DNA of 64,000 nucleotides from Candidatus Saccharimonadia bacterium (GTDB taxonomy: Bacteria; Patescibacteriota; SICC01). Under the pieces are notes generated by a model, which did no database searches, was not told where the DNA came from, and saw nothing but the letters and a program-made list of their open reading frames with translations. The stretch lies in NCBI GenBank assembly GCA_025449535.1, contig JANWJF010000001.1, positions 549,136 through 613,135 of the forward strand, given 5' to 3'. Made by a program: the position numbers and the translations under genes. Positions within the stretch are counted from its first letter, which is position 1. Each line of letters begins with the position of its first letter. Of the stretch, positions 11,367 through 63,040 are shown piece after piece.

Positions 11367-11390
11367 CATAAGTGGTCTAATATAAAACCC

Positions 11391-11912
11391 ATGCCATTGA
11401 TTTACGTTATGGGAGTTAACGGCTCCGGCAAGTCGACAGTGAGAAAAGAGCTGAGTGCTCGCGGGTACCAAGCGCACGAATTGGATGAGGCTCCTGGGGT
11501 CGGCTTTTACAACAAGCGAACCGGGAAAAAGACTCCGCTAGGAGCGAGAACAAAGGCATGGTATGACCAGCATGAATGGATTATGCCTCGTGAAAAGGCA
11601 GAAGAATTTGCAGCTCGTGCTAAAAATGAGTTGATTTTCCTCTGTGGTGGCGTACATAACGAAAAAGACCTTTGGGATCTCTTTGACGTTGCTATCTATT
11701 TGGACATCGATGAACCGACTGTTCTTAAGCGTGTCAGGGAGCGGTCCAAAGGGACGGGAAAAGCTCCCGCGGAATTAGCCGAGCTTCTAAGGTGGCACGC
11801 AATCGCCAAGGACATTTACCTGAAACGAGGAGCAAAAATTGTAAACTCCGCGCAGCCAATCAAGAAGGTAGTTGATGACGTTTTGTCATTCGTGCCATTA
11901 GTTAAAGACTGA
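11391..11912 (+). CDS. P-loop NTPase / small nucleotide-kinase-like protein in a lower-GC insert
   Basis: Walker A VMGVNGSGKST and a DxD-like FDVAIYLDID motif. 173 aa. GC is visibly lower than the flanks. Confidence 0.6.
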   Translation: MPLIYVMGVNGSGKSTVRKELSARGYQAHELDEAPGVGFYNKRTGKKTPLGARTKAWYDQHEWIMPREKAEEFAARAKNELIFLCGGVHNEKDLWDLFDVAIYLDIDEPTVLKRVRERSKGTGKAPAELAELLRWHAIAKDIYLKRGAKIVNSAQPIKKVVDDVLSFVPLVKD

Positions 11913-11952: not shown

Positions 11953-12366
11953 TTACATCAGGTCTTCTAGCTGTTCAGGAGTAAGCCGTAGTACAACGAA
12001 GGCACCAGAACCCTTAACCAGGTTCGCAGAATGGATGACGTCGGGCGGAATGACTATGACGGCAGGTGATTCTACTTCGCGCTCTTCTTCTCCCACGCGA
12101 ATTCGATACACTAATTCACCCGGGGCTCCAGCTAGTACATTTACCTCAGGAAAGGGGTGTGTATGAGCAATTCCGTATTTTCGTTCTTCTTGAGGGGCAC
12201 CGTCAACGACATGAACTGCAGTGTAAAGCGGCTCACCAGCAAAGTAGCGGCGAATATCAGCGTTGTCGCCATACCCTGCTCGCTCTCCTGTATGGTCCCG
12301 GATATGCGAAATGGGTGTTTCTTCTAGGGGCACAACCACTGATTCAAAACCTTTAGAATGAGTCAT
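11953..12366 (-). CDS. cupin-domain protein
   Basis: 137 aa with His-rich motifs (HTHPFPEVNVL, VIHSANL) typical of the cupin metal site. GC is lower than the flanks. Confidence 0.55.
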   Translation of the reverse strand: MTHSKGFESVVVPLEETPISHIRDHTGERAGYGDNADIRRYFAGEPLYTAVHVVDGAPQEERKYGIAHTHPFPEVNVLAGAPGELVYRIRVGEEEREVESPAVIVIPPDVIHSANLVKGSGAFVVLRLTPEQLEDLM

Positions 12367-14727: not shown

Positions 14728-15019
14728 AACAGGCGGAACATGCGCATGGTCACGCCCGCTGCAGGAACCCTAGCAAGTACAACATGAACGTGAAGGTTAC
14801 GGTGATCGCGTACAGCTCGAAGCGCGCCCCGGTATCCAGGAAGGAGGCGATCACGAGTGACGCGATCCATACAACGACGATACTGATGAGGACGAAGAGG
14901 TACTTCAAGAAAACGCGTATTTATCTTCCCCTGTGCCTCAAGGATATCACCTTTTCTCCAAGCACCTGCCACGCCTAGGTTGCAAGTCATCAGGCATGCT
15001 ATCCTTATCCGTTCGCATT

Positions 15020-17476
15020 ATGAATGAAGAGAATCCAGAGTCGGAATGGTTGACTGCCGAAGCCTCCCGGTGGGCGTTCGATGAGACCGTATGGAATCTG
15101 CTTGTAACAGCCCCACATAACCCGCAGGGCCTTACGGTTGGCAGCATGGCGGAATACGTGGCCAGGCGGTATGTCCATCGTGCACGCGGGCTGCCATCAG
15201 AACATACCGATGTCAGTAATGTGGACTTTTCCGGGTTGACCGAAAACGAGCCTTTACCTGGGCCTGAGCCCACCGAACCGGGCGCCAAGCCTGATGATTC
15301 TGGTACCGTCGACTTGGCGAAAGGCGACATCAGTCCCGAAGATCAGAAGGAAATCATGGATTCGTTGATCTTGGCAATCGCCCGGCATTACGACATCCAG
15401 CCCATCGATCTCATGATGGGTGATCGCAAACGCAAGCTCTACAAGCCCCGTCGCGTAGCCTGCTACGCGCTCCGGAACTACGCTAGGATGCCGTTCGATG
15501 ACGTCGCCAGGATCATCGGCGGAACGAGTGCATCGGCGGCATACCAGTCGGCGCTGAGAGTCCGTAGGGAAGATCTTCCTCGGGATATCGAATTACAACG
15601 TGACCTGGTCAGAATCCGCCAGGCCATCCCTCCAGAGCACCGACGTTACATTGCTGACGACGACCTGTTCGACCCGGTCGTGCTTGAAGCGACCGAAGGG
15701 GAGTTCACGCCTGGAGCAATAGAGCCAACCGAGGTCGAGAAGCCGGAAGGAATCCCGGAGGTTCCCATTGGTGACATCATTTTCGAGGTGTGCCGGCAGT
15801 TGGAGGTGACCCAGGAGCAACTGGTCGCCAAGCGGTCTCGGTACGAGAACCGACCGCTGCAAATCGCCGCTTTGCTGGCTGATGAGCTGACCGACTTTTC
15901 ACACGAGAAGATTGGAGCCGAACTGGGAGACCGGTCCGCTCCCGGTATCAAGTCATTGGTGAACCGGGCCGCCCAGGTGATTCCCGACGATCCCGAGTGG
16001 TCCGGACGTTTCCAGGCGGTCAAGGAAGCGCTGCTGATTAGGCATGGCATTCCGGTCGACGGATTGGATGGTGATTCAAGCCAGAATCCGCTGTTCGACA
16101 TGTTGGACGAACCAGGAGAACGGGATGACATCGGGCCGGTCGAAATCGCCCCCGGGGCACCGGAAGCGGCTGAACTCAGTGTCGAGCCCGATGGCCAGTC
16201 TGATGCCGACGAGGAAAAACCGGAAGTCCTGATAGGCGACGAACCGGGGGAAGAAGATGTGGCTCCGGAGGAAGTCGGCGATCCGGAAGGAACGACTGAT
16301 GGTACGGCGGCGGGTGGAGAAAAATTGGCCGAAGAAGTAACCCCGCTTGTGGACGATGAGGAAACTGATGATGAGGCACTCGGCCAGGAGACGATTGAAC
16401 TTTCTACCGAGGGAAGCCGGGCCCAATATACCGAAGAAGGTATCCAAGAGACCATCAAGGCGGTACAAGAAGGGGAAAAGGGTGCGGAAAATGATTTGCT
16501 GTCCAGCCTCCAGCCGAAGTTCGTGGGAGCTGTCGGGGGAGAACGACTTTCGGGATCCAAACGGAATGCCCGCTTAGCGGAGCTCCGCAGCGATGCATTG
16601 GTAGCTGCTAGGCGGTACGACCTTCGTGCGAAGAAACCTATCCTTGAGGCGATTGCAGAGGTGCGGGCGGAGCGGATTCTCCGGCAGGAAAGAACGCAGG
16701 AAGGACTGCAAAAATTGGTGCCTGAACCCTTGCCTGGAGAAACGGACATTGCAAGGGATATCCAAGCTGATTCCGAAGCAGCAGAGCGGCTCCTCCGACA
16801 TTACGATGGAATGATCGACGGCATCACGACCCTTTGTGTCGGCAAGAAGCTCGATGCGGAGGTGAAACAGCTGCTCCGGACGGCCGCAGAAAGCCAATTT
16901 CTGACTGCGGCGAGATACTTTCATACCAGCGGCAATGAGCATTTCGGACTCTGGTGCGCCAAGAGCATCAGCGTCGCCTTGCACAAAGAGATTGAGAAAC
17001 CCAAAGTGGCGGAGCAGCTTGATGCGGCGGAAGAGGAAGCCATCGTGGAAGAGCCGGACGAAACGACCAGTGCAGTCGAGGAACCACCTAAGACAAAACC
17101 CATCTCCACCAAGGCTCCTGTCGTCCTGCCCAAGGACCGGACCGAGCATTTGTTGCCGGTAGGATCCCTGGCGGTCATCGTAGGCAATCAGGAGGAACGG
17201 GTGACCAGGGTTAGGATCAAGGATCCGGAAAAGGACAACACCATAGTGACGAATCTCGAAATACTGGAACAAAATATCAGGGCCAATCCGCACATCATCT
17301 GTGGCACGAATTCACCTGTCCTCATCCCCCTATCGGTACTGGCACGGATACGAGAGGACGACTCGTTTAGAAAGCAATGGCTTGAGCAATGTCACAATGG
17401 GTATACTCCGGATTCGGTCCGGATGATAGAGCGCAACATCGACGCGGCATTGGCTGATCCATTGTTGGCTGCCTAG
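15020..17476 (+). CDS. large acidic protein with two DnaA domain-IV-like HTH domains and a distinct C-terminal domain (hypothetical regulator)
   Basis: Residues ~125-190 (IQPIDLMMGDRKRKLYKPRRVACYALRNYARMPFDDVARIIGGTSASAAYQ) and ~260-330 (…AKRSRYENRPLQIAALLADELTDFSHEKIGAELGDRSAPGIKSLV) match the DnaA C-terminal pattern. A long Asp/Glu-rich linker follows. GC is lower than the flanks. Confidence 0.7.
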   Translation: MNEENPESEWLTAEASRWAFDETVWNLLVTAPHNPQGLTVGSMAEYVARRYVHRARGLPSEHTDVSNVDFSGLTENEPLPGPEPTEPGAKPDDSGTVDLAKGDISPEDQKEIMDSLILAIARHYDIQPIDLMMGDRKRKLYKPRRVACYALRNYARMPFDDVARIIGGTSASAAYQSALRVRREDLPRDIELQRDLVRIRQAIPPEHRRYIADDDLFDPVVLEATEGEFTPGAIEPTEVEKPEGIPEVPIGDIIFEVCRQLEVTQEQLVAKRSRYENRPLQIAALLADELTDFSHEKIGAELGDRSAPGIKSLVNRAAQVIPDDPEWSGRFQAVKEALLIRHGIPVDGLDGDSSQNPLFDMLDEPGERDDIGPVEIAPGAPEAAELSVEPDGQSDADEEKPEVLIGDEPGEEDVAPEEVGDPEGTTDGTAAGGEKLAEEVTPLVDDEETDDEALGQETIELSTEGSRAQYTEEGIQETIKAVQEGEKGAENDLLSSLQPKFVGAVGGERLSGSKRNARLAELRSDALVAARRYDLRAKKPILEAIAEVRAERILRQERTQEGLQKLVPEPLPGETDIARDIQADSEAAERLLRHYDGMIDGITTLCVGKKLDAEVKQLLRTAAESQFLTAARYFHTSGNEHFGLWCAKSISVALHKEIEKPKVAEQLDAAEEEAIVEEPDETTSAVEEPPKTKPISTKAPVVLPKDRTEHLLPVGSLAVIVGNQEERVTRVRIKDPEKDNTIVTNLEILEQNIRANPHIICGTNSPVLIPLSVLARIREDDSFRKQWLEQCHNGYTPDSVRMIERNIDAALADPLLAA

Positions 17477-22554: not shown

Positions 22555-23058
22555 ATGAAAACCGCTCTCATTGTCATAGACGTTCAAAATTACTTCGTGA
22601 ACGATCGCACCGCCAGGGTTCCTGGAAAGATTGCTGACCATATCCGTTTACGAAAACCCGAACTGGCTTTCTTTACCAGGTTCATCAATAAGGAAAGTTC
22701 CCAGTTCGTAAAGATGCTCAACTGGCGCGAGTGCATGAGCAGTCCTGATGTTGACCTCAGTCCAGAAATCAAAGCGTTCGCGGGCGAGCCGAATACTTTT
22801 GACAAGACTGGCTTCTCGATCTTTCGGTCGAAAAGTCTCACGTCTCGTCTAAAAGAAGAGAACGTGACTCATGTACAACTATGCGGCATCGACATTGATG
22901 CTTGCGTGCTGGCATCGGCCTATGAGGCATTCGACCGAGGATATCGCGTAGAGGTGCTAGACGGTATCTCTGGAAGCCACCATGGCGAAGACTTAGGCAG
23001 AGCCGCGGTTGATATCATTAATAGGAACCTGCGATCCAAGAGTGAACCCAGGCAATGA
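22555..23058 (+). CDS. isochorismatase-family cysteine hydrolase
   Basis: LIVIDVQNYF…; the conserved Cys lies in QLCGIDIDACVL. 167 aa in a lower-GC segment. Confidence 0.75.
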   Translation: MKTALIVIDVQNYFVNDRTARVPGKIADHIRLRKPELAFFTRFINKESSQFVKMLNWRECMSSPDVDLSPEIKAFAGEPNTFDKTGFSIFRSKSLTSRLKEENVTHVQLCGIDIDACVLASAYEAFDRGYRVEVLDGISGSHHGEDLGRAAVDIINRNLRSKSEPRQ

Positions 23059-44710: not shown

Positions 44711-45232
44711 CTACTTGGGAACCCGAAAGTCTTCAAGGTCGATGATTTCGAATTGGTTTTCTTTCGAATCCCAAATACCAAAACTGGGCTGGCCACTTCC
44801 GGTCCCGGCAATCTCTCCTGGGTTTGCCAGTAGCGTCCCGTTTTCGAGCGTTTCCGTATGTTTGGCATGATCATGTCCATAAAAACTGGCACGGTACTTT
44901 CCGGAAGCTGCCGCGTTCCTGGCCAGTAACGGGAAATGGGTTAGGAAAATCAGACCATCCGGTGTTTCTAGCTCCCGAAATTGGTCAGCAACAATGGAAA
45001 AGTTCTTTGCTGAGCCGAATCTGAGCAGCATTCCCGCTTGCATACCGTCGACGTTGCCCCAGACACATATCCAGTTGATATCCTTGTGCTTGATCATTGC
45101 TTCGACAATGCCACCTGCACAGAAGTCGCCGAGATGAAAGCAGGTTGTAATGCCCTTTTCTCTCATTCCCCGGATAGCCTCTTCTAGGTTGTAGAAATTG
45201 TCGTGGGAATCGGAAATGACACCGTATTGCAT
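44711..45232 (-). CDS. YfcE-like metallophosphoesterase (calcineurin-like)
   Basis: Metallophosphoesterase motifs DSHDN and GDFC…GNVD…GHDH. GC is lower than the flanks. Confidence 0.75.
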   Translation of the reverse strand: MQYGVISDSHDNFYNLEEAIRGMREKGITTCFHLGDFCAGGIVEAMIKHKDINWICVWGNVDGMQAGMLLRFGSAKNFSIVADQFRELETPDGLIFLTHFPLLARNAAASGKYRASFYGHDHAKHTETLENGTLLANPGEIAGTGSGQPSFGIWDSKENQFEIIDLEDFRVPK

Positions 45233-57246: not shown

Positions 57247-57310
57247 TGTACTCTGTACATCCGCGGCGTCGTTCGGAAATGCTAGAGTAAACTCTGCGTT
57301 TCCTCACTCC
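57247..57310 (+). promoter_or_regulatory. conserved two-hairpin module upstream of tRNA-Gly(TCC)
   Basis: tgtacTCTgtaca … TCGGAAATGctagagtAAactctgCGTTTCCTCAC, as in the other three loci. Confidence 0.5.
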
Positions 57311-57885: not shown

Positions 57886-57948
57886 CCGGTACTACGTACC
57901 GGAGCTCGGCACTCGGAAATGCTAGAGTGAACTCTGCATTTCTCTCGC
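57886..57948 (+). promoter_or_regulatory. conserved two-hairpin module upstream of the tRNA at 57954
   Basis: ccggtacTACgtaccgg … TCGGAAATGctagagtGAactctgCATTTCTCTCGC. Confidence 0.5.
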
Positions 57949-57953
57949 TTCTC

Positions 57954-58025
57954 GCCCCGGTAGCTCAGCGGAAGAGCAGGAGACTTCTAAGCTCAAGGCC
58001 GTAGGTTCGAATCCTACCCGGGGCA
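57954..58025 (+). tRNA. tRNA-Arg-like (anticodon TCT) with atypical anticodon stem
   Basis: Perfect acceptor (GCCCCGG/CCGGGGC), D and T arms. The anticodon loop CTTCTAA is identical to E. coli tRNA-Arg(UCU), but the anticodon stem GGAGA/GCTCA pairs only 3 of 5. Confidence 0.6.
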
Positions 58026-58042
58026 CATGGCCCAGGACGACG

Positions 58043-58077
58043 CCGGGAACCGGACGCGGTTCCCGGTCTTCGTTTTG
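58043..58077 (+). terminator. Rho-independent terminator (ccgggaaccg-GACG-cggttcccgg + TCTTCGTTTTG)
   Basis: A 10-bp GC-rich stem is followed by a T-rich tract 18 nt after the tRNA. Confidence 0.75.
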
Positions 58078-58129
58078 TCCGGGCGATGAGCGAGGGCATA
58101 ATGGTTGTGGGCATGGCATGGTGGCTATA

Positions 58130-58194
58130 GCTCAACAGGTTAGAGCGCCGGTTTGTGGTACCGGAGGTTGTGGGTTCGAGCCCCATTAGCCACC
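58130..58194 (+). tRNA. tRNA-His (anticodon GTG) with encoded G-1
   Basis: The extra 5' G pairs with discriminator C. Anticodon stem ccggt/accgg with loop ttGTGgt. Upstream promoter TTGTCC-N17-ATAATG. Confidence 0.85.
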
Positions 58195-58212
58195 CAATCA
58201 AGCAAGTATATT

Positions 58213-58713
58213 ATGTCTACAATACTCGAAACACCAGACTTCATTGTCAAAGCCCCCGATCAGCCGCATCACTCAAGGGAGAATGGGGGTCATGTGGTTA
58301 TTACTCCAAAGCAGCGCTTTGGGCATCGCACTGAAATGTCTACCGACCTCGCCACGAAACTAATGTATCTGACCATGATTGCGGGTGAGGCCGTGACTAA
58401 AGTTATGAAAGAGGCTGGACTCAAAGTAGTGAGGATCAACTATCAGGACAATGGCAACTGGGCGTACAAAGAACCCAAGAAAGAGCCACATCTGCATGTC
58501 CACCTTTACGTTCGCACGACTGGGGAACAGCACCCCGACAATGACTCACGCTTTCAAGCGTTTCCTGATGCCCTAGTTTTTCCAGATCGAGGTACTGGAT
58601 ATTACGAGAAGTTTCAGCCCCTCACTGATGAAGATTGCCAAGCAATCAATTCGGAGATGGTATCGCTGGCAAGGAGGGAAAAGTACCGGGACTTGGAGTT
58701 AGGGATCGCGTAA
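58213..58713 (+). CDS. HIT-like nucleotide hydrolase/transferase family protein (lower-GC island)
   Basis: The histidine triad HLHVHLY sits in a ~165-aa protein directly 3' of tRNA-His. GC is markedly lower than the flanks. Confidence 0.55.
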   Translation: MSTILETPDFIVKAPDQPHHSRENGGHVVITPKQRFGHRTEMSTDLATKLMYLTMIAGEAVTKVMKEAGLKVVRINYQDNGNWAYKEPKKEPHLHVHLYVRTTGEQHPDNDSRFQAFPDALVFPDRGTGYYEKFQPLTDEDCQAINSEMVSLARREKYRDLELGIA

Positions 58714-58765
58714 TTGCAGTTCTAACGTCGTCTGTGCAGACGCCTAAAACACGTAACTGCACGCG

Positions 58766-60025
58766 ATGACACATAATATGTCCGATTCAGTAAATATTGT
58801 CGGTTCAGGAATAGTCGGGCTTATTTCAGCGTATAAAGTTCATCAAAAGTTACGCATACCGGTCAGGGTATATGATGCTGGGCCCGATCCGAGGGCCCAG
58901 AGGAACCACTTCCATTCTTTTGGTGCCAGCTACAGCGGTCTAGATGCTCGTCATATTTCGATAACGGAAACCGGCCCGTGGACGGATGCTAGTCGCGAGG
59001 AATTGATTGAGCGAAGTCCCGCCGAGGGTGGTTGGAACTGTCTGGCTTCCGTTACTAAGAATCAATACGAGGCAGCGTGGCAACAAGAATTTAAATCGAT
59101 TGCCCGAGATGCCGATCGGCACGCTACGAATTCCCAGCAAGTCTTTGCAGCCAACAAGGAAGGCTTAATGGCGTGGGCAGAACTCCATCGCCGCAAGCCA
59201 AAGTTATTTGCGCCGATTTTCGATACTAATTACTTGACGATTATTTGCACGAATGAAGCCGACTTAGTCGACGAGTACGAAGGGGAAAAGCGGTTGGACG
59301 AGGGTCGCGTCAAGAATCTTCAACACACTATGCCCGTCGGGTACGAACCTCTCGACCAAAAGTTCCGGGACGGTATCCTGCACGGCTCATTCACGGTGGC
59401 CGGTAATGCGTATAACATTCGGAAACTGTGCGTCAACGTAATCGACTATTTGGAAGAGCATGGTGTTGAGTTTCACTGGCGAAATCCTATCAGCTTAGTT
59501 GACGGCGGTGACCGTGTTACGGAGTTGCCACCCGGCGATATTGTTTGGGCAAGCGGTGTCTCGGGAGGGATGTCATCCTTCCTTGCTGACAAGAAAATAC
59601 TGCTCCAAGGTGTTCTGGGCTGCTGGGTTGATATACCAAACCAGGGATTTAGCCACCCATTCAAAATTTACGGCAAAGAACCGACGAATTTCATTAATGC
59701 CACTCCCATCGGAAACAGGTTGCTACTTTCGGGAGGATATGGATGGGTTGGTACGCGCGCCCATGCCGAGGTCACCAAACTAGCCAAACCAACGATGCAG
59801 GCTTTTCTACATGAAGTCTCAAAGTTCTTCTTTGATGGCCGGGCTCTATCGGACAAGTATCCTCTAGCGACATGCATTCGCCCTTCGTTGCCGTCTGGGG
59901 TGACCCAAATAGAGGAGATTACTTACCAGGATCGGAGAGTCGTTACATGCATCGGCCACTCCGCCGGAGGGTTCACCCAATCTGCCCATGTAGCTGACGT
60001 GGTAGTGGAAAAGTTATCAAGCTAG
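58766..60025 (+). CDS. FAD-dependent oxidoreductase (DAO/glycine-oxidase-like)
   Basis: N-terminal dinucleotide-binding VNIVGSGIVGLISAY. 419 aa. GC is low. Confidence 0.65.
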   Translation: MTHNMSDSVNIVGSGIVGLISAYKVHQKLRIPVRVYDAGPDPRAQRNHFHSFGASYSGLDARHISITETGPWTDASREELIERSPAEGGWNCLASVTKNQYEAAWQQEFKSIARDADRHATNSQQVFAANKEGLMAWAELHRRKPKLFAPIFDTNYLTIICTNEADLVDEYEGEKRLDEGRVKNLQHTMPVGYEPLDQKFRDGILHGSFTVAGNAYNIRKLCVNVIDYLEEHGVEFHWRNPISLVDGGDRVTELPPGDIVWASGVSGGMSSFLADKKILLQGVLGCWVDIPNQGFSHPFKIYGKEPTNFINATPIGNRLLLSGGYGWVGTRAHAEVTKLAKPTMQAFLHEVSKFFFDGRALSDKYPLATCIRPSLPSGVTQIEEITYQDRRVVTCIGHSAGGFTQSAHVADVVVEKLSS

Positions 60026-60110
60026 AGTGCTAGGGATAAGCATCAGGCATCAGGTTTCATGGTGAGAACTGGAGCTGCGCGAACTTTCTTCCAGAAGCCT
60101 AAAGGAAATC

Positions 60111-60659
60111 ATGAACGAGCAAGACATCCTTAATCTCATCCGCGGCAACCGTTGGATGATGGATGTGCTGCAAGCCGCGCAGCGCGCCGACCTGCCGGAT
60201 TGGGTCATCGGTGCCGGCTTCGTGCGCAACCCGGTGTGGGACCATTTGCATGGCCGCGAACCAGTGCTTGATACGGATGTAGACCTTGTCTACTTCGACC
60301 GAGGTGCCGCGGACAAGGAAGCGGAGAAAAGGCATGAAGCCAAGCTGAAGGGCGATTTTCAAGCGGATTGGTCCGTCAAGAACCAAGCCCGGATGCATCT
60401 TAAGCACGGCGACGATCCGTACGAGAACACCGAGGACGCGTTGGCGCATTGGGTAGAGACGGCAACGTGCATCGGAGTCCGCCTGGACCGGAGCGGAGAC
60501 CTCATTCTGGTCGCGCCCCACGGTATCGACGACTTGGTCAATCTGGTGGTTCGTCCCGGCCCGCTGCACTCGAAGCCGGAGCAGGTGGTCGAACGGATTC
60601 GGGAGAAGCATTGGTTGGAGCGGTGGCCGAAGCTGCGGCTGACAGGTCTGCCGGAATGA
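60111..60659 (+). CDS. Pol-beta-superfamily nucleotidyltransferase family protein
   Basis: IGAGFVRNPVWDHLHGREPVLDTDVDLVYFD fits the G[GS]…DxD nucleotidyltransferase signature. Confidence 0.6.
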   Translation: MNEQDILNLIRGNRWMMDVLQAAQRADLPDWVIGAGFVRNPVWDHLHGREPVLDTDVDLVYFDRGAADKEAEKRHEAKLKGDFQADWSVKNQARMHLKHGDDPYENTEDALAHWVETATCIGVRLDRSGDLILVAPHGIDDLVNLVVRPGPLHSKPEQVVERIREKHWLERWPKLRLTGLPE

Positions 60660-61147
60660 ACAAGTACCTCGTCGTCCACTTCCTAGACTCGCTTTCCGAA
60701 GGCGAGCGGTTCGAGTCATCCGCATGGCCACTGCATCTGACGCTTATCCCTCCATTTTCTACCAATGCGGAACGGTCTGACTTGGAACAGTTCCTGCGAA
60801 CCGTCAGTCAGAGGAGGCCGATTGATTTGAAAGTCTCTGGCAAATCCTTATTCGGCGTTCGTCAGGACATTCCGGTCATGGAAGTGGTCCTGCTTCCTGA
60901 GCTGCGAGATTTGCACGAAGCGGTGGTCAACGCCTTGGAAGAGCAGGATGTCAGGCACGGAAGCCCGGCCCATATCAGGGAAGGATTCCGGCCGCACGTC
61001 ACGATACAAAAGAGCGGGACGGCCGAGCCGGGGCAGACGGTCCGCATGGATGCCATTACCTTGGTCGGCTACCCGACCGACAGGACCCGGGAGGTCCTTA
61101 CACATTTTCCGCTCGGCTCCGGCGTAGTACCATCGAATGATGGCTGA
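60656..61147 (+). CDS. 2H phosphoesterase superfamily protein (LigT / 2'-5' RNA ligase / cyclic phosphodiesterase-like)
   Basis: Two HxT/Sx motifs (WPLHLTLIPPF and RPHVTIQK) at the expected spacing. The ATG overlaps the stop of the nucleotidyltransferase gene. Confidence 0.6.
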   Translation: MNKYLVVHFLDSLSEGERFESSAWPLHLTLIPPFSTNAERSDLEQFLRTVSQRRPIDLKVSGKSLFGVRQDIPVMEVVLLPELRDLHEAVVNALEEQDVRHGSPAHIREGFRPHVTIQKSGTAEPGQTVRMDAITLVGYPTDRTREVLTHFPLGSGVVPSNDG

Positions 61148-61231
61148 AGACCTACCCCGCAGTATGCGCTGCCGTTTTGACTGGCTGTTCAAGCGGCAGA
61201 AGAACCGCTAGTTCTGCGGTACGATTGACCC

Positions 61232-62149
61232 GTGAGCAAACAAAAACGACCGGCCATCAAGACGCAGGGCCTGACCAAGTTCTATGGCAAGACCCGTGGC
61301 ATCGAGGACCTCAGCCTGACCGTCGAGCAGGGGGAGACATTCGGGTTCCTGGGGCCGAACGGCGCCGGCAAGAGCACGACGATCAACCTCCTGATGGGCT
61401 TCCGCAAGCCGACCGACGGCAAGGCGTTGGTGCTCGGGAAGCCGGTCGGGCCGGATGCGATCGAGACGCGGCGCCGGATCGGGTTCATGCCCGGCGAGCT
61501 GTCGTTGTACGGCCAGATGAAGGCGCACGCGTTGCTGGATTACTTCGCCCGGCTGCGTGGGAACGTCGAGGATGGATACATCCACGAGCTCGCGGAACGG
61601 TTCGACCTCGACCTGAGCAAGAAGGTGAAGGACCTCTCGAAGGGCAACAAGCAGAAGGTCGCGTTGGTGTCCGCTTGGATGCACAAGCCGGACCTGCTGA
61701 TCCTCGACGAACCTACCAGCGGCTTGGACCCGATCGTCCAAGAAGAGTTCCGCGATCTGGTCAGCGAAGCGAAGCGCCGGGGCGTTACCGTGTTTCTCTC
61801 GTCCCACGTACTGTCCGAGGCCGAGCACCTCTGCGACCGGGTCGGCGTCGTCAAGGAAGGACGCCTGATCGCGGTCGAGCGGATCGCGACGCTTCACGAG
61901 CGGGGTATCCGGCACGTCGAGGTGCAGTTCGCGACCAAGCCGTGGCCGGACATGCTGAAGCGGATCGATGGGATCCATGACGTTCGCGTCGAAGGCAGGA
62001 CCATGCGGTTCACCGTCCACGGTTCGATTGACAAGGTGATCAAGCTGCTCGCGAGGCATCGGATCATCAACCTGAGCAGCGACCCGGCCAGCCTGGAGGA
62101 ATTCTTCTTCGACGAGTACGAAGAGACGGTCAAGGAGGCCGGGACATGA
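61232..62149 (+). CDS. ABC transporter ATP-binding protein
   Basis: Walker A GPNGAGKST, signature LSKGNKQKV and Walker B LLILDEPTSGLD. Confidence 0.9.
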   Translation: MSKQKRPAIKTQGLTKFYGKTRGIEDLSLTVEQGETFGFLGPNGAGKSTTINLLMGFRKPTDGKALVLGKPVGPDAIETRRRIGFMPGELSLYGQMKAHALLDYFARLRGNVEDGYIHELAERFDLDLSKKVKDLSKGNKQKVALVSAWMHKPDLLILDEPTSGLDPIVQEEFRDLVSEAKRRGVTVFLSSHVLSEAEHLCDRVGVVKEGRLIAVERIATLHERGIRHVEVQFATKPWPDMLKRIDGIHDVRVEGRTMRFTVHGSIDKVIKLLARHRIINLSSDPASLEEFFFDEYEETVKEAGT

Positions 62150-62949
62150 ACGACCTCGGCGCTATCTTCCTGCGGACGCTCAGTGACTCACGCCGGAGCA
62201 TGTTCTGGTGGTCACTCGGCATGTTCGCGTTGATTTTCTTCGTGATGGCCCTGTATCCGACGTTCAAGGAGAATGCCGGGCAACTCAATGAGCTGTACCA
62301 GTCGTCCAAGGAAATCGTCGCGCTGGTCGGCACGCAGGACATGTCCACGGGGGTCGGCTTCCTGACCCAGGAAGTATTCTCGATCATGGCGCCGTTATTC
62401 TTGATCATCTACGGTATCCAACTGGGCGCGTCGGCGATCGGACGCGAGGAGGGCCGGGGGACGCTGCCGCTGCTCCTGGCCAACCCGATCTCCCGCAGCC
62501 GGGTCGTCTACGAGAAGTACGCCGCGATGAAGGCCGCGTTGCTGGTGGTGGCGGCTGTCGTGTTCGTGACCATCGCTCCGTTGGCACCGGTATTCGAGAT
62601 GAAGGACGTCGAGCTCGCCAAGCTGGCCACTGCGTCGCTGATGACGTTCCTGATCGGGCTGGCGTTCGGGTCGATCGCGTTCCTGGTCGGCGCCGCGACG
62701 GGTAACCGGGGACTGGCCGTCGGGGCTACTAGCGCGTTGGGTCTCGGCATGTATCTGCTGTACGTAATGGAACAGCTGGTGGATTCGTTGGAACCGTATC
62801 GCTGGCTGAGTCTATTCCACTATTACGTCCCGGACAACGTCCTGACCGACTTTCCCACGTTCGGAAACGTCCTTGTGCTGATCGGCGTCAGCGTGGCCGG
62901 ATTCGGCCTTTCCTTGCTGGTATTCCCCCGGCGCGATGTCCGGGCCTGA
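62146..62949 (+). CDS. ABC-2 family transporter permease
   Basis: 267 aa with 6 TM helices, translationally coupled to the ATPase gene. Confidence 0.75.
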   Translation: MNDLGAIFLRTLSDSRRSMFWWSLGMFALIFFVMALYPTFKENAGQLNELYQSSKEIVALVGTQDMSTGVGFLTQEVFSIMAPLFLIIYGIQLGASAIGREEGRGTLPLLLANPISRSRVVYEKYAAMKAALLVVAAVVFVTIAPLAPVFEMKDVELAKLATASLMTFLIGLAFGSIAFLVGAATGNRGLAVGATSALGLGMYLLYVMEQLVDSLEPYRWLSLFHYYVPDNVLTDFPTFGNVLVLIGVSVAGFGLSLLVFPRRDVRA

Positions 62950-62971: not shown

Positions 62972-63040
62972 CCCGTATGCTCGCATACGGGTCGCTCCTC
63001 GTTCGGAAATGCTAAAGTGAACTTTGCATTTCACTCACTC
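62972..63040 (+). promoter_or_regulatory. conserved two-hairpin module upstream of tRNA-Arg(TCG)
   Basis: cccgtatgCTCGcatacggg … TCGGAAATGctaaagtGAactttgCATTTCACTCAC. Confidence 0.5.

Follow-up and report, generated by a model that had tools for sequence, protein, structure and literature searches.

The question raised by this locus is whether four consecutive genes behind a histidine tRNA form one functional system. The genes lie at positions 58195-61147 of a 64,000-nucleotide (nt) stretch of DNA, here called the window, from a Candidatus Saccharimonadia bacterium (contig JANWJF010000001.1). They encode a HIT-superfamily protein, a DAO-family flavin adenine dinucleotide (FAD)-dependent oxidoreductase, a stand-alone Pol-beta-type nucleotidyltransferase (NTase) and a 2H phosphoesterase. 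A first-pass annotation described them as a ~3-kb island of low guanine-plus-cytosine (GC) content, perhaps a defence, second-messenger or RNA-repair module acquired at a tRNA hotspot. The evidence points with fair confidence to a composite mosaic and not a four-gene system: an imported tRNA-His/HIT/DAO fragment lies beside a resident NTase gene that carries a lineage-specific 2H gene.

The coordinates of the four co-oriented open reading frames (ORFs) on the + strand are confirmed, and all four family calls hold in profile hidden Markov model (HMM) searches. tRNA-His(gtg) occupies 58121-58195 (+) according to ARAGORN and 58121-58194 according to Rfam, with G-1 encoded at 58120. The HIT gene (58213-58713, +; 166 amino acids, aa) begins 17 nt past the tRNA and is followed after 52 nt by the DAO gene (58766-60025, +; 419 aa). 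The NTase gene (60111-60659, +; 182 aa) begins 85 nt further on. The 2H gene (60656-61147, +; 163 aa) has a gap of -4 nt, and the NTase stop and the 2H start share the sequence ATGA at 60656-60659, which bears out the translational coupling first proposed.

Base composition divides the supposed 3-kb island into two unlike halves. The segment 58196-60110, which holds the HIT and DAO genes, has a GC content of 0.499, the minimum among all 1915-nt intervals of the 64 kb (mean 0.619, standard deviation 0.038). The NTase and 2H genes together reach 0.59, an unremarkable value at the 25th percentile. The division is based on both overall GC and GC at third codon positions (GC3), which are 0.493 and 0.533 for HIT, 0.505 and 0.529 for DAO, 0.605 and 0.738 for NTase, and 0.571 and 0.677 for 2H; core genes typically have a GC3 of 0.85-0.9. 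The compositionally foreign part is thus 58196-60110 only. The trough is real, with a length of ~1.9 kb instead of ~3 kb. It was described as running from tRNA-His to the ABC transporter genes, and GC is indeed again ~0.62 in those genes, but it has already recovered in the NTase and 2H genes.

Synteny separates the same two halves. The relatives are three Patescibacteria contigs, L005, L006 and L007, with an NTase identity of 71% in the first and 62-63% in the other two. The first part of the shared backbone comprises RNase Y, YmdB, HU, tRNA-Pro, a 368-aa gene, tRNA-Gly(tcc), a ~110-aa gene, tRNA-Arg(tct) and tRNA-His. After tRNA-His, it continues with NTase, ABC and ABC-2 genes, tRNA-Arg(tcg), Ddl, NAGPA, AI-2E and HAD. 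In the window, the ABC ATPase gene (61232-62149, +) and the ABC-2 permease gene (62146-62949, +) belong to this backbone and share 85% and 40% identity, respectively, with their L006 counterparts. The NTase gene stands at the identical syntenic position in L005, L006 and L007; its identity of 62-71% falls inside the range of the flanking genes (40-98%), and DNA homology to L005 resumes exactly at its ATG, 60111. These three features mark the NTase as a vertically inherited resident of the locus.

The space between the tRNAs and the NTase gene, in turn, is a gene-turnover slot with different content in each lineage. DNA homology to L005 and L006 stops right past tRNA-Arg(tct) (57954..58026, +; ARAGORN), the final backbone element common to the relatives before the variable DNA. 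The edge of that DNA is therefore probably just 3' of this tRNA, at ~58027, and not at tRNA-His, where the left border had first been placed. The genes before NTase are HIT and DAO in the window; prephenate dehydratase, tRNA-His, RHH-PIN and peptide deformylase in L005; and shikimate kinase, prephenate dehydratase, tRNA-His, a Ser-hydrolase and CYTH in L006/L007. The RHH-PIN genes are a toxin-antitoxin pair that occupies the slot at L005 2671-3320. At L006 7011-8664, NTase has the CYTH gene upstream and, downstream, the gene of a 190-aa protein that matches ANT(2'') faintly. Deviant composition together with variable presence among relatives holds for 58196-60110 only. The proposal of acquisition at a tRNA hotspot is thus sustained in that foreign DNA lies beside tRNA genes in a slot of varying content, but the four genes were not one joint acquisition.

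The tRNA itself was probably part of the import. The tRNA-His genes of L005 and L006 agree fully (100% identity), and the window copy matches them at only 76%; the neighbouring tRNAs of the window are 88-97% identical to those of L005/L006 (93-97% for tRNA-Arg(tct)). The closest HIT homologue (76% aa identity) is encoded on L162, a contig with a GC content of 0.45, directly 3' of a tRNA-His; 531 nt over the tRNA and the HIT gene align between the window and L162 at 70.6% nucleotide identity. tRNA-His and HIT were thus probably imported together, replacing the resident tRNA-His region. The DAO gene probably belongs to the same import because its composition is identical to that of HIT. In this reconstruction, ~2 kb of low-GC DNA would have entered the slot between the tRNAs and the NTase of a conserved tRNA-rich backbone. 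The HIT nucleotide hydrolase or transferase probably came with its own tRNA-His. It is probably expressed from a tRNA-mRNA co-transcript because its ATG follows the tRNA after 17 nt, a distance similar to that in L162.

Signals that could drive such a transcript are only suggestive. A consensus scan places a strong terminator-like hairpin (58042-58067, +; 11 pairs and a T-run) upstream of tRNA-His and a promoter-like site (58075-58102, +) between the hairpin and the tRNA, with counts not above shuffle expectation. Terminator-like sites total 5, in comparison with a shuffle mean of 5.0, so there is no excess. The only one inside the four-gene unit is weak (59524-59539, within DAO; 6 pairs, of which 3 are G-C), and another weak site lies just 3' of the 2H gene at 61159-61172. 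An Rfam scan of 55.5-63.5 kb returns nothing besides tRNAs. A separate motif, TCGGAAATGCTA[GA]AGT[GA]AACT[CT]TGC, which extends to ~34 nt, occurs at 57273-57297, 57913-57937 and 63003-63027, ~40 nt upstream of tRNA-Gly(tcc), tRNA-Arg(tct) and tRNA-Arg(tcg) (3 matches, with 0.00 expected by chance). It is not found upstream of tRNA-His and is probably a lineage-specific tRNA promoter or leader element.

Several observations weigh against a mosaic of independent genes with a jointly imported tRNA-His/HIT/DAO fragment. The four genes share their orientation and are separated by short gaps, and they may form one transcript from the tRNA-His promoter, in which case co-expression could mean cooperation. 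The window tRNA-His is 75.6% identical to the L162 copy and thus no closer to it than to the copies of the relatives. The 94-nt spacer upstream of tRNA-His is GC-rich. No donor or relatives of DAO were found, so the joint import of HIT and DAO is based on composition alone.

One rival, in line with the first-pass annotation, is a single four-gene operon that entered as one block at the tRNA and encodes enzymes working one after another on a nucleotide or small molecule. Besides the co-oriented arrangement with its single weak internal terminator-like site, the operon gains from the fact that all four enzymes could plausibly handle nucleotide-like substrates and that all four genes are intact on 7 contigs of the same organism. 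However, the unit has two compositions (GC3 0.53 and 0.68-0.74), and the NTase gene is syntenic and vertically inherited in relatives without the other three genes, a synteny that largely refutes acquisition en bloc. Co-occurrence elsewhere is also missing. NTase loci were collected from 80 species genomes (Bacillota, Alphaproteobacteria, Gammaproteobacteria, Patescibacteria and an archaeon), with neighbours considered within 6 kb; no 2H-subfamily or DAO homologue lies near the NTase in any of them (0/80). Neither NTase nor HIT nor DAO occurs at 68 metagenomic 2H-subfamily loci (0/68), and no DAO, NTase or 2H gene is near the HIT homologue in the 8 contexts examined (0/8), which are unrelated to each other. 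The set and its pairs thus do not recur, with the sole exception of NTase-2H in L012. The en bloc operon is consequently very unlikely, and the idea of one module acquired together is abandoned.

No mobile-element machinery accompanies the imported fragment. None of the four ORFs is an integrase, each being assigned to another family, and flanking attachment (att) repeats are missing. One candidate att site was considered: 58186-58201, which spans the last 10 nt of tRNA-His and 6 nt downstream, is repeated at 59649-59664 (16 nt, 1 mismatch). It was rejected as a border because the second copy, which encodes FSHPFK, falls within the DAO ORF, itself intact and matching the whole DAO profile, and there is no change in GC at this point; the repeat is probably due to chance. 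Phage origin was likewise rejected. A PHROGs search gives no match for the four proteins, HIT and 2H are not found in 2.9 million viral contigs, and NTase occurs in these only at 6 contig ends.

The same searches bear on the suggestion of an anti-phage defence or nucleotide second-messenger system, which is extremely improbable and has been dropped. An NTase, a phosphoesterase and a HIT protein do resemble the parts lists of signalling and defence systems, and the best PADLOC hit of the four proteins is a generic HIT match (ThsC; 14.7 bits, E 0.005; next hit E 0.016). This match is weak, however, and nothing significant emerges from PADLOC or PHROGs. The locus contains no effector gene and has no conserved neighbourhood. 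The NTase fold resembles CCA-adding enzymes (E ~1e-5) and not the CD-NTases of CBASS (E 0.08).

The HIT protein scores 21.5 bits against Pfam HIT, exactly at the cut-off. This borderline call is secured by its motif, the conservation of its histidines and its AlphaFold/Foldseek matches. Among 43 homologues, the motif HLHVHLY (residues 93-99) keeps H95 throughout and H97 in at least 90%, with the first His variable. A second motif of the subfamily, RINYQDNGNW, is nearly fully invariant among the same 43. The AlphaFold model has a predicted local distance difference test (pLDDT) score of 92 and matches HIT, Fhit and Ap4A-phosphorylase structures with a Foldseek probability of 1.0 (E 5e-6 to 1e-3). 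The subfamily comprises 110 homologue clusters, mostly from Patescibacteria. Its most probable activity is that of a nucleotide phosphoramidase or of an ApnA hydrolase/phosphorylase, with no specific substrate assignable. In 4/9 contexts (window, L162, L008, L010), a tRNA gene lies <=200 nt from the HIT gene. In L009 and L166, a GDSL-lipase gene overlaps the HIT start, and in L161 and L166 the HIT-subfamily gene adjoins a 2-hydroxyacid dehydrogenase gene.

The DAO protein matches PF01266 with 64.1 bits (cut-off 27.9) over residues 9-415, which covers profile positions 2-352/353, and its N-terminal GxGxxG dinucleotide-binding motif reads GSGIVG. It reaches no NCBIfam equivalog for D-amino acid dehydrogenase or glycine oxidase (best 21.8 bits, cut-off 383), has no PDB sequence match at E<0.01, and a metagenome pattern scan for it is empty. 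Only 3 plasmid matches (25-27% identity) are available, and their contexts are uninformative. The protein is most likely a divergent amine or amino-acid oxidase/dehydrogenase, and no specific substrate can be assigned. HIT and this flavoenzyme share the slot with no detectable functional tie to each other or to the downstream genes.

The NTase matches PF06042 (NTP_transf_6) over its full length with 191.6 bits. This family corresponds to COG3575 and to group XX of Kuchta et al. (2009), where it was considered a probably active NTase with no function assigned (PMC2794190). It is widespread, with 1953 clusters at E<=1e-10. The motif-A-like sequence GAGFVRN...DxD does not vary at G34, A35, G36 and D58, and conservation of D56 is at least 90%. 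Sequence comparison finds PDB 2LA3 (S. pneumoniae NP_344798.1) with E 2e-25 and 34% identity. The AlphaFold model (pLDDT 94.8) matches the same entry, whose title includes "CCA-adding enzyme head domain", with E 2e-14 and a template modelling (TM) score of 0.84. Class II CCA- and A-adding enzymes follow (4WC2, 1VFG, 3H37, 5HC9; E 2e-5 to 7e-4, probability 1.0), and MntA (E 0.07), CdnE (E 0.08, probability 0.23) and ANT(2'')-Ia (E 0.1) are far more distant. As modelled, the protein has the catalytic core of a tRNA nucleotidyltransferase, yet is not a CCA-adding enzyme. The window has 9 tRNA genes (for example at 11367, 21020, 22350, 56112, 58026, 58195 and 63118). Only 2/9 carry the complete 3' CCA; in the remaining seven, 'CA' comes after the discriminator and gives way to unrelated sequence. 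Because 7/9 do not encode the full CCA, the organism needs a CCA-adding activity.

The 2H protein scores 55.1 bits against 2_5_RNA_ligase2 (PF13563) and 26 bits against LigT_PEase (PF02834). Both HxT motifs are present, as HLTL (HLT 27-29) and HVTI (HVT 114-116); among 40 relatives, H27 and H114 are invariant, T29 is nearly so, and T116 is the family consensus. It remains below the ThpR/LigT equivalog TIGR02258 (23.4 bits, cut-off 65.7) and has no PDB sequence match. Only one close relative is found (56% identity). Many distant members (23-30% identity; L125-L160) stand in a tight order of the elongation factor P (EF-P) gene efp, 2H and an S4+FtsJ (TlyA-like) methyltransferase gene, as at L148 4407-6166 and L151 4383-6250. 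EF-P accounts for 24/83 flanking ORFs of these distant loci and FtsJ for 18/83, and some of the loci are on contigs of ~1 Mb. This arrangement suggests a housekeeping role of the 2H subfamily in RNA metabolism or translation, which speaks in favour of an RNA-related function of the NTase-2H pair.

How the NTase and 2H genes relate to each other is the part of the locus where a joint function deserves consideration. In L012, an NTase gene (75% identical) is followed by a 2H gene (56% identical) with the same ATGA overlap, so the neighbourhood is kept in one sister lineage; as noted above, it is missing from the wider sets of NTase and 2H loci. At L173 2-1457, the NTase gene (71% identical) lies between two HAD-family hydrolase genes, each overlapping by 4 nt, and in L006/L007 the CYTH gene is directly upstream of NTase. 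Within this clade, the coupled neighbours of the NTase are repeatedly phosphohydrolases of unlike superfamilies (2H, HAD, CYTH). The 190-aa gene of L006 was considered as a diverged 2H gene and rejected, since its BLASTP match has an E of 0.008 over 88 residues and its only Pfam match is the faint one to ANT(2''). A general phosphoesterase-partner rule for PF06042 was also rejected outside this clade on the basis of flank counts in the 80 genomes.

Enzymes of the 2H, HAD and HD types provide RNA 3'-end healing activities, as in the cyclic phosphodiesterase of tRNA ligase, the T4 Pnkp phosphatase and the HD domain of the E. coli CCA enzyme. By analogy, the 2H protein would act first, on an RNA 3' end or a nucleotide that bears a 2',3'-cyclic phosphate, and open or remove this group. 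The NTase, a CCA-enzyme head with no tRNA-binding body or tail, would then add one or more nucleotides to the healed 3'-hydroxyl. Removal of a 2',3'-cyclic or terminal phosphate and subsequent extension of an RNA 3' end would be the most likely function of the two acting jointly, and it is put forward tentatively, as a minority possibility. A broader form, in which a stand-alone PF06042 head domain and an interchangeable coupled phosphohydrolase heal and re-extend damaged RNA (tRNA) 3' ends as a minimal two-protein system in one Patescibacteria clade, is distinctly unlikely. The option of RNA repair raised at first therefore survives solely for the NTase-2H pair, where it is plausible but unproven.

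Four points count against an RNA-end mechanism. Class II CCA enzymes carry an EDxxR templating motif and have neck, body and tail domains (~350-450 aa in total). In the window NTase, the EDxxR position reads EDALA, and the protein has no RNA-binding body or tail. No phosphoesterase partner of the NTase is found in the 80 species genomes. The tightly coupled partners in these genomes (n=28) are mainly GNAT proteins (6/28), beta-lactamase-family proteins and glyoxalases, which have the look of small-molecule modification.

The latter observation leads to an alternative in which the NTase, with or without 2H and the ABC-2 exporter, nucleotidylates or detoxifies small molecules such as an antibiotic or xenobiotic, in the manner of ANT or Lnu. 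Flanks of PF06042 genes (n=138 in 80 genomes) are heterogeneous, the commonest being GNAT (7), MFS (6), glyoxalase/bleomycin-resistance (5), NUDIX (3), APH (2) and beta-lactamase (2) proteins; the enrichment of all of these except NUDIX fits this role. The faint ANT(2'') match of the gene after NTase in L006 and the ABC-2 exporter genes directly downstream in the window fit it as well. However, these numbers are low and resemble what generic accessory regions usually show, and the NTase fold is far closer to CCA-adding heads (E ~1e-5) than to ANT(2'')-Ia (E 0.1). 2H phosphoesterases are not known to play a role in such resistance. Detoxification is thus unlikely.

A further alternative is that the adjacency of NTase and 2H is a lineage-specific insertion accident, that the two are uncoupled, and that each of the four genes acts alone. 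The partner of the NTase does differ between lineages, being 2H, HAD, CYTH plus the 190-aa protein, or none, and 4-nt overlaps are common in compact genomes of the candidate phyla radiation (CPR), for example between ABC and ABC2. On the other hand, the pair and its exact ATGA overlap are kept across a divergence to 75% and 56% identity, and phosphohydrolases make up 3/4 of the alternative partners, a hint of a common theme. An accident of this kind is possible though doubtful. The composite mosaic, with an old resident NTase to which a 2H gene is translationally coupled in the window lineage and one sister lineage, remains the preferred account of the segment.

Other parts of the window show similar compositional outliers. 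Four further small low-GC (~0.49) genes stand out from its GC of 0.62, at 11391-11912 (+), 11953-12366 (-), 22555-23058 (+) and 44711-45232 (-). One of them is P-loop kinase-like and lies 23 nt 3' of tRNA-Asp; another, of the isochorismatase family, lies 204 nt 3' of tRNA-Gly(ccc); a third encodes a Metallophos_2 phosphoesterase, and the remaining one has no family match. Single imported genes just 3' of tRNA genes look like a repeated pattern in this genome. Elsewhere, an 847-aa ORF of unusual architecture (14933-17476, +; GC 0.566) has the DnaA C-terminal helix-turn-helix, in two stretches, as its sole Pfam match.

The chief value of the analysis is a correction: a seeming nucleotide-modifying cassette is better described as an imported fragment beside a resident gene. 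The four genes belong to known families, and the region is an ordinary mosaic. The locus illustrates how a streamlined CPR genome gains accessory genes in slots between tRNA genes, here with the tRNA gene apparently replaced too; transcription from tRNA promoters probably runs on into the imported genes. The lead worth keeping is the hypothesis that the theme of an NTase with a phosphoesterase offers a route to the function of PF06042. The family dates back to 2009 and its structure to 2011, yet it has no function, and the clade suggests that it may contain an RNA 3'-end NTase that works with a phosphoesterase.

Each component of the locus can be placed next to a known system. Like tRNA-associated islands and tRNA-mRNA co-transcripts, the imported fragment has genes of foreign composition directly 3' of a tRNA (17-nt gap) that are variable among relatives. 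Unlike such islands, it is only ~2 kb long, has neither an integrase nor flanking att repeats, and the tRNA itself looks replaced. The HIT protein shares with the Fhit/Ap4A-phosphorylase branch (Rv2613c, PDB 3ANO; Fhit, 1FIT) the HIT fold and the conservation of the nucleophile and the next histidine. It differs from that branch in its low identity (15-20%), an insertion before the triad, the RINYQDNGNW motif and a first triad His that is not conserved. The 2H protein resembles the LigT/ThpR 2H phosphoesterases (RNA 2',3'-cyclic phosphodiesterase) in its two HxT motifs, its length of ~160 aa and its matches to PF13563 and PF02834, whereas it belongs to a separate subfamily of ~760 representatives (763 at E<=1e-3).

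The NTase agrees with other PF06042/COG3575 proteins (2LA3) in its single domain of ~180 aa, its hG[GS] and DxD motifs and its full-length match, with no structural difference; its translational coupling to 2H is unseen in 80 other genomes. With class II CCA enzymes, it shares the head-domain fold (TMq ~0.5) and the motif-A-like GAGFVRN...DxD. It differs from these in having 182 aa and no neck, body or tail, in its identity of 14-23% and in a TMt of 0.22-0.29, and the phosphoesterase of the window is a separate 2H protein instead of an HD domain. The CCA-adding enzyme of E. coli is a fusion of an NTase with a 2',3'-cyclic phosphodiesterase of the HD-domain type. The window pair would represent the same functional pairing of an NTase and a cyclic phosphodiesterase. 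If RNA 3'-end healing proves to be its role, NTase-2H would be a split, non-orthologous analogue of the E. coli fusion and would provide the first function for PF06042.

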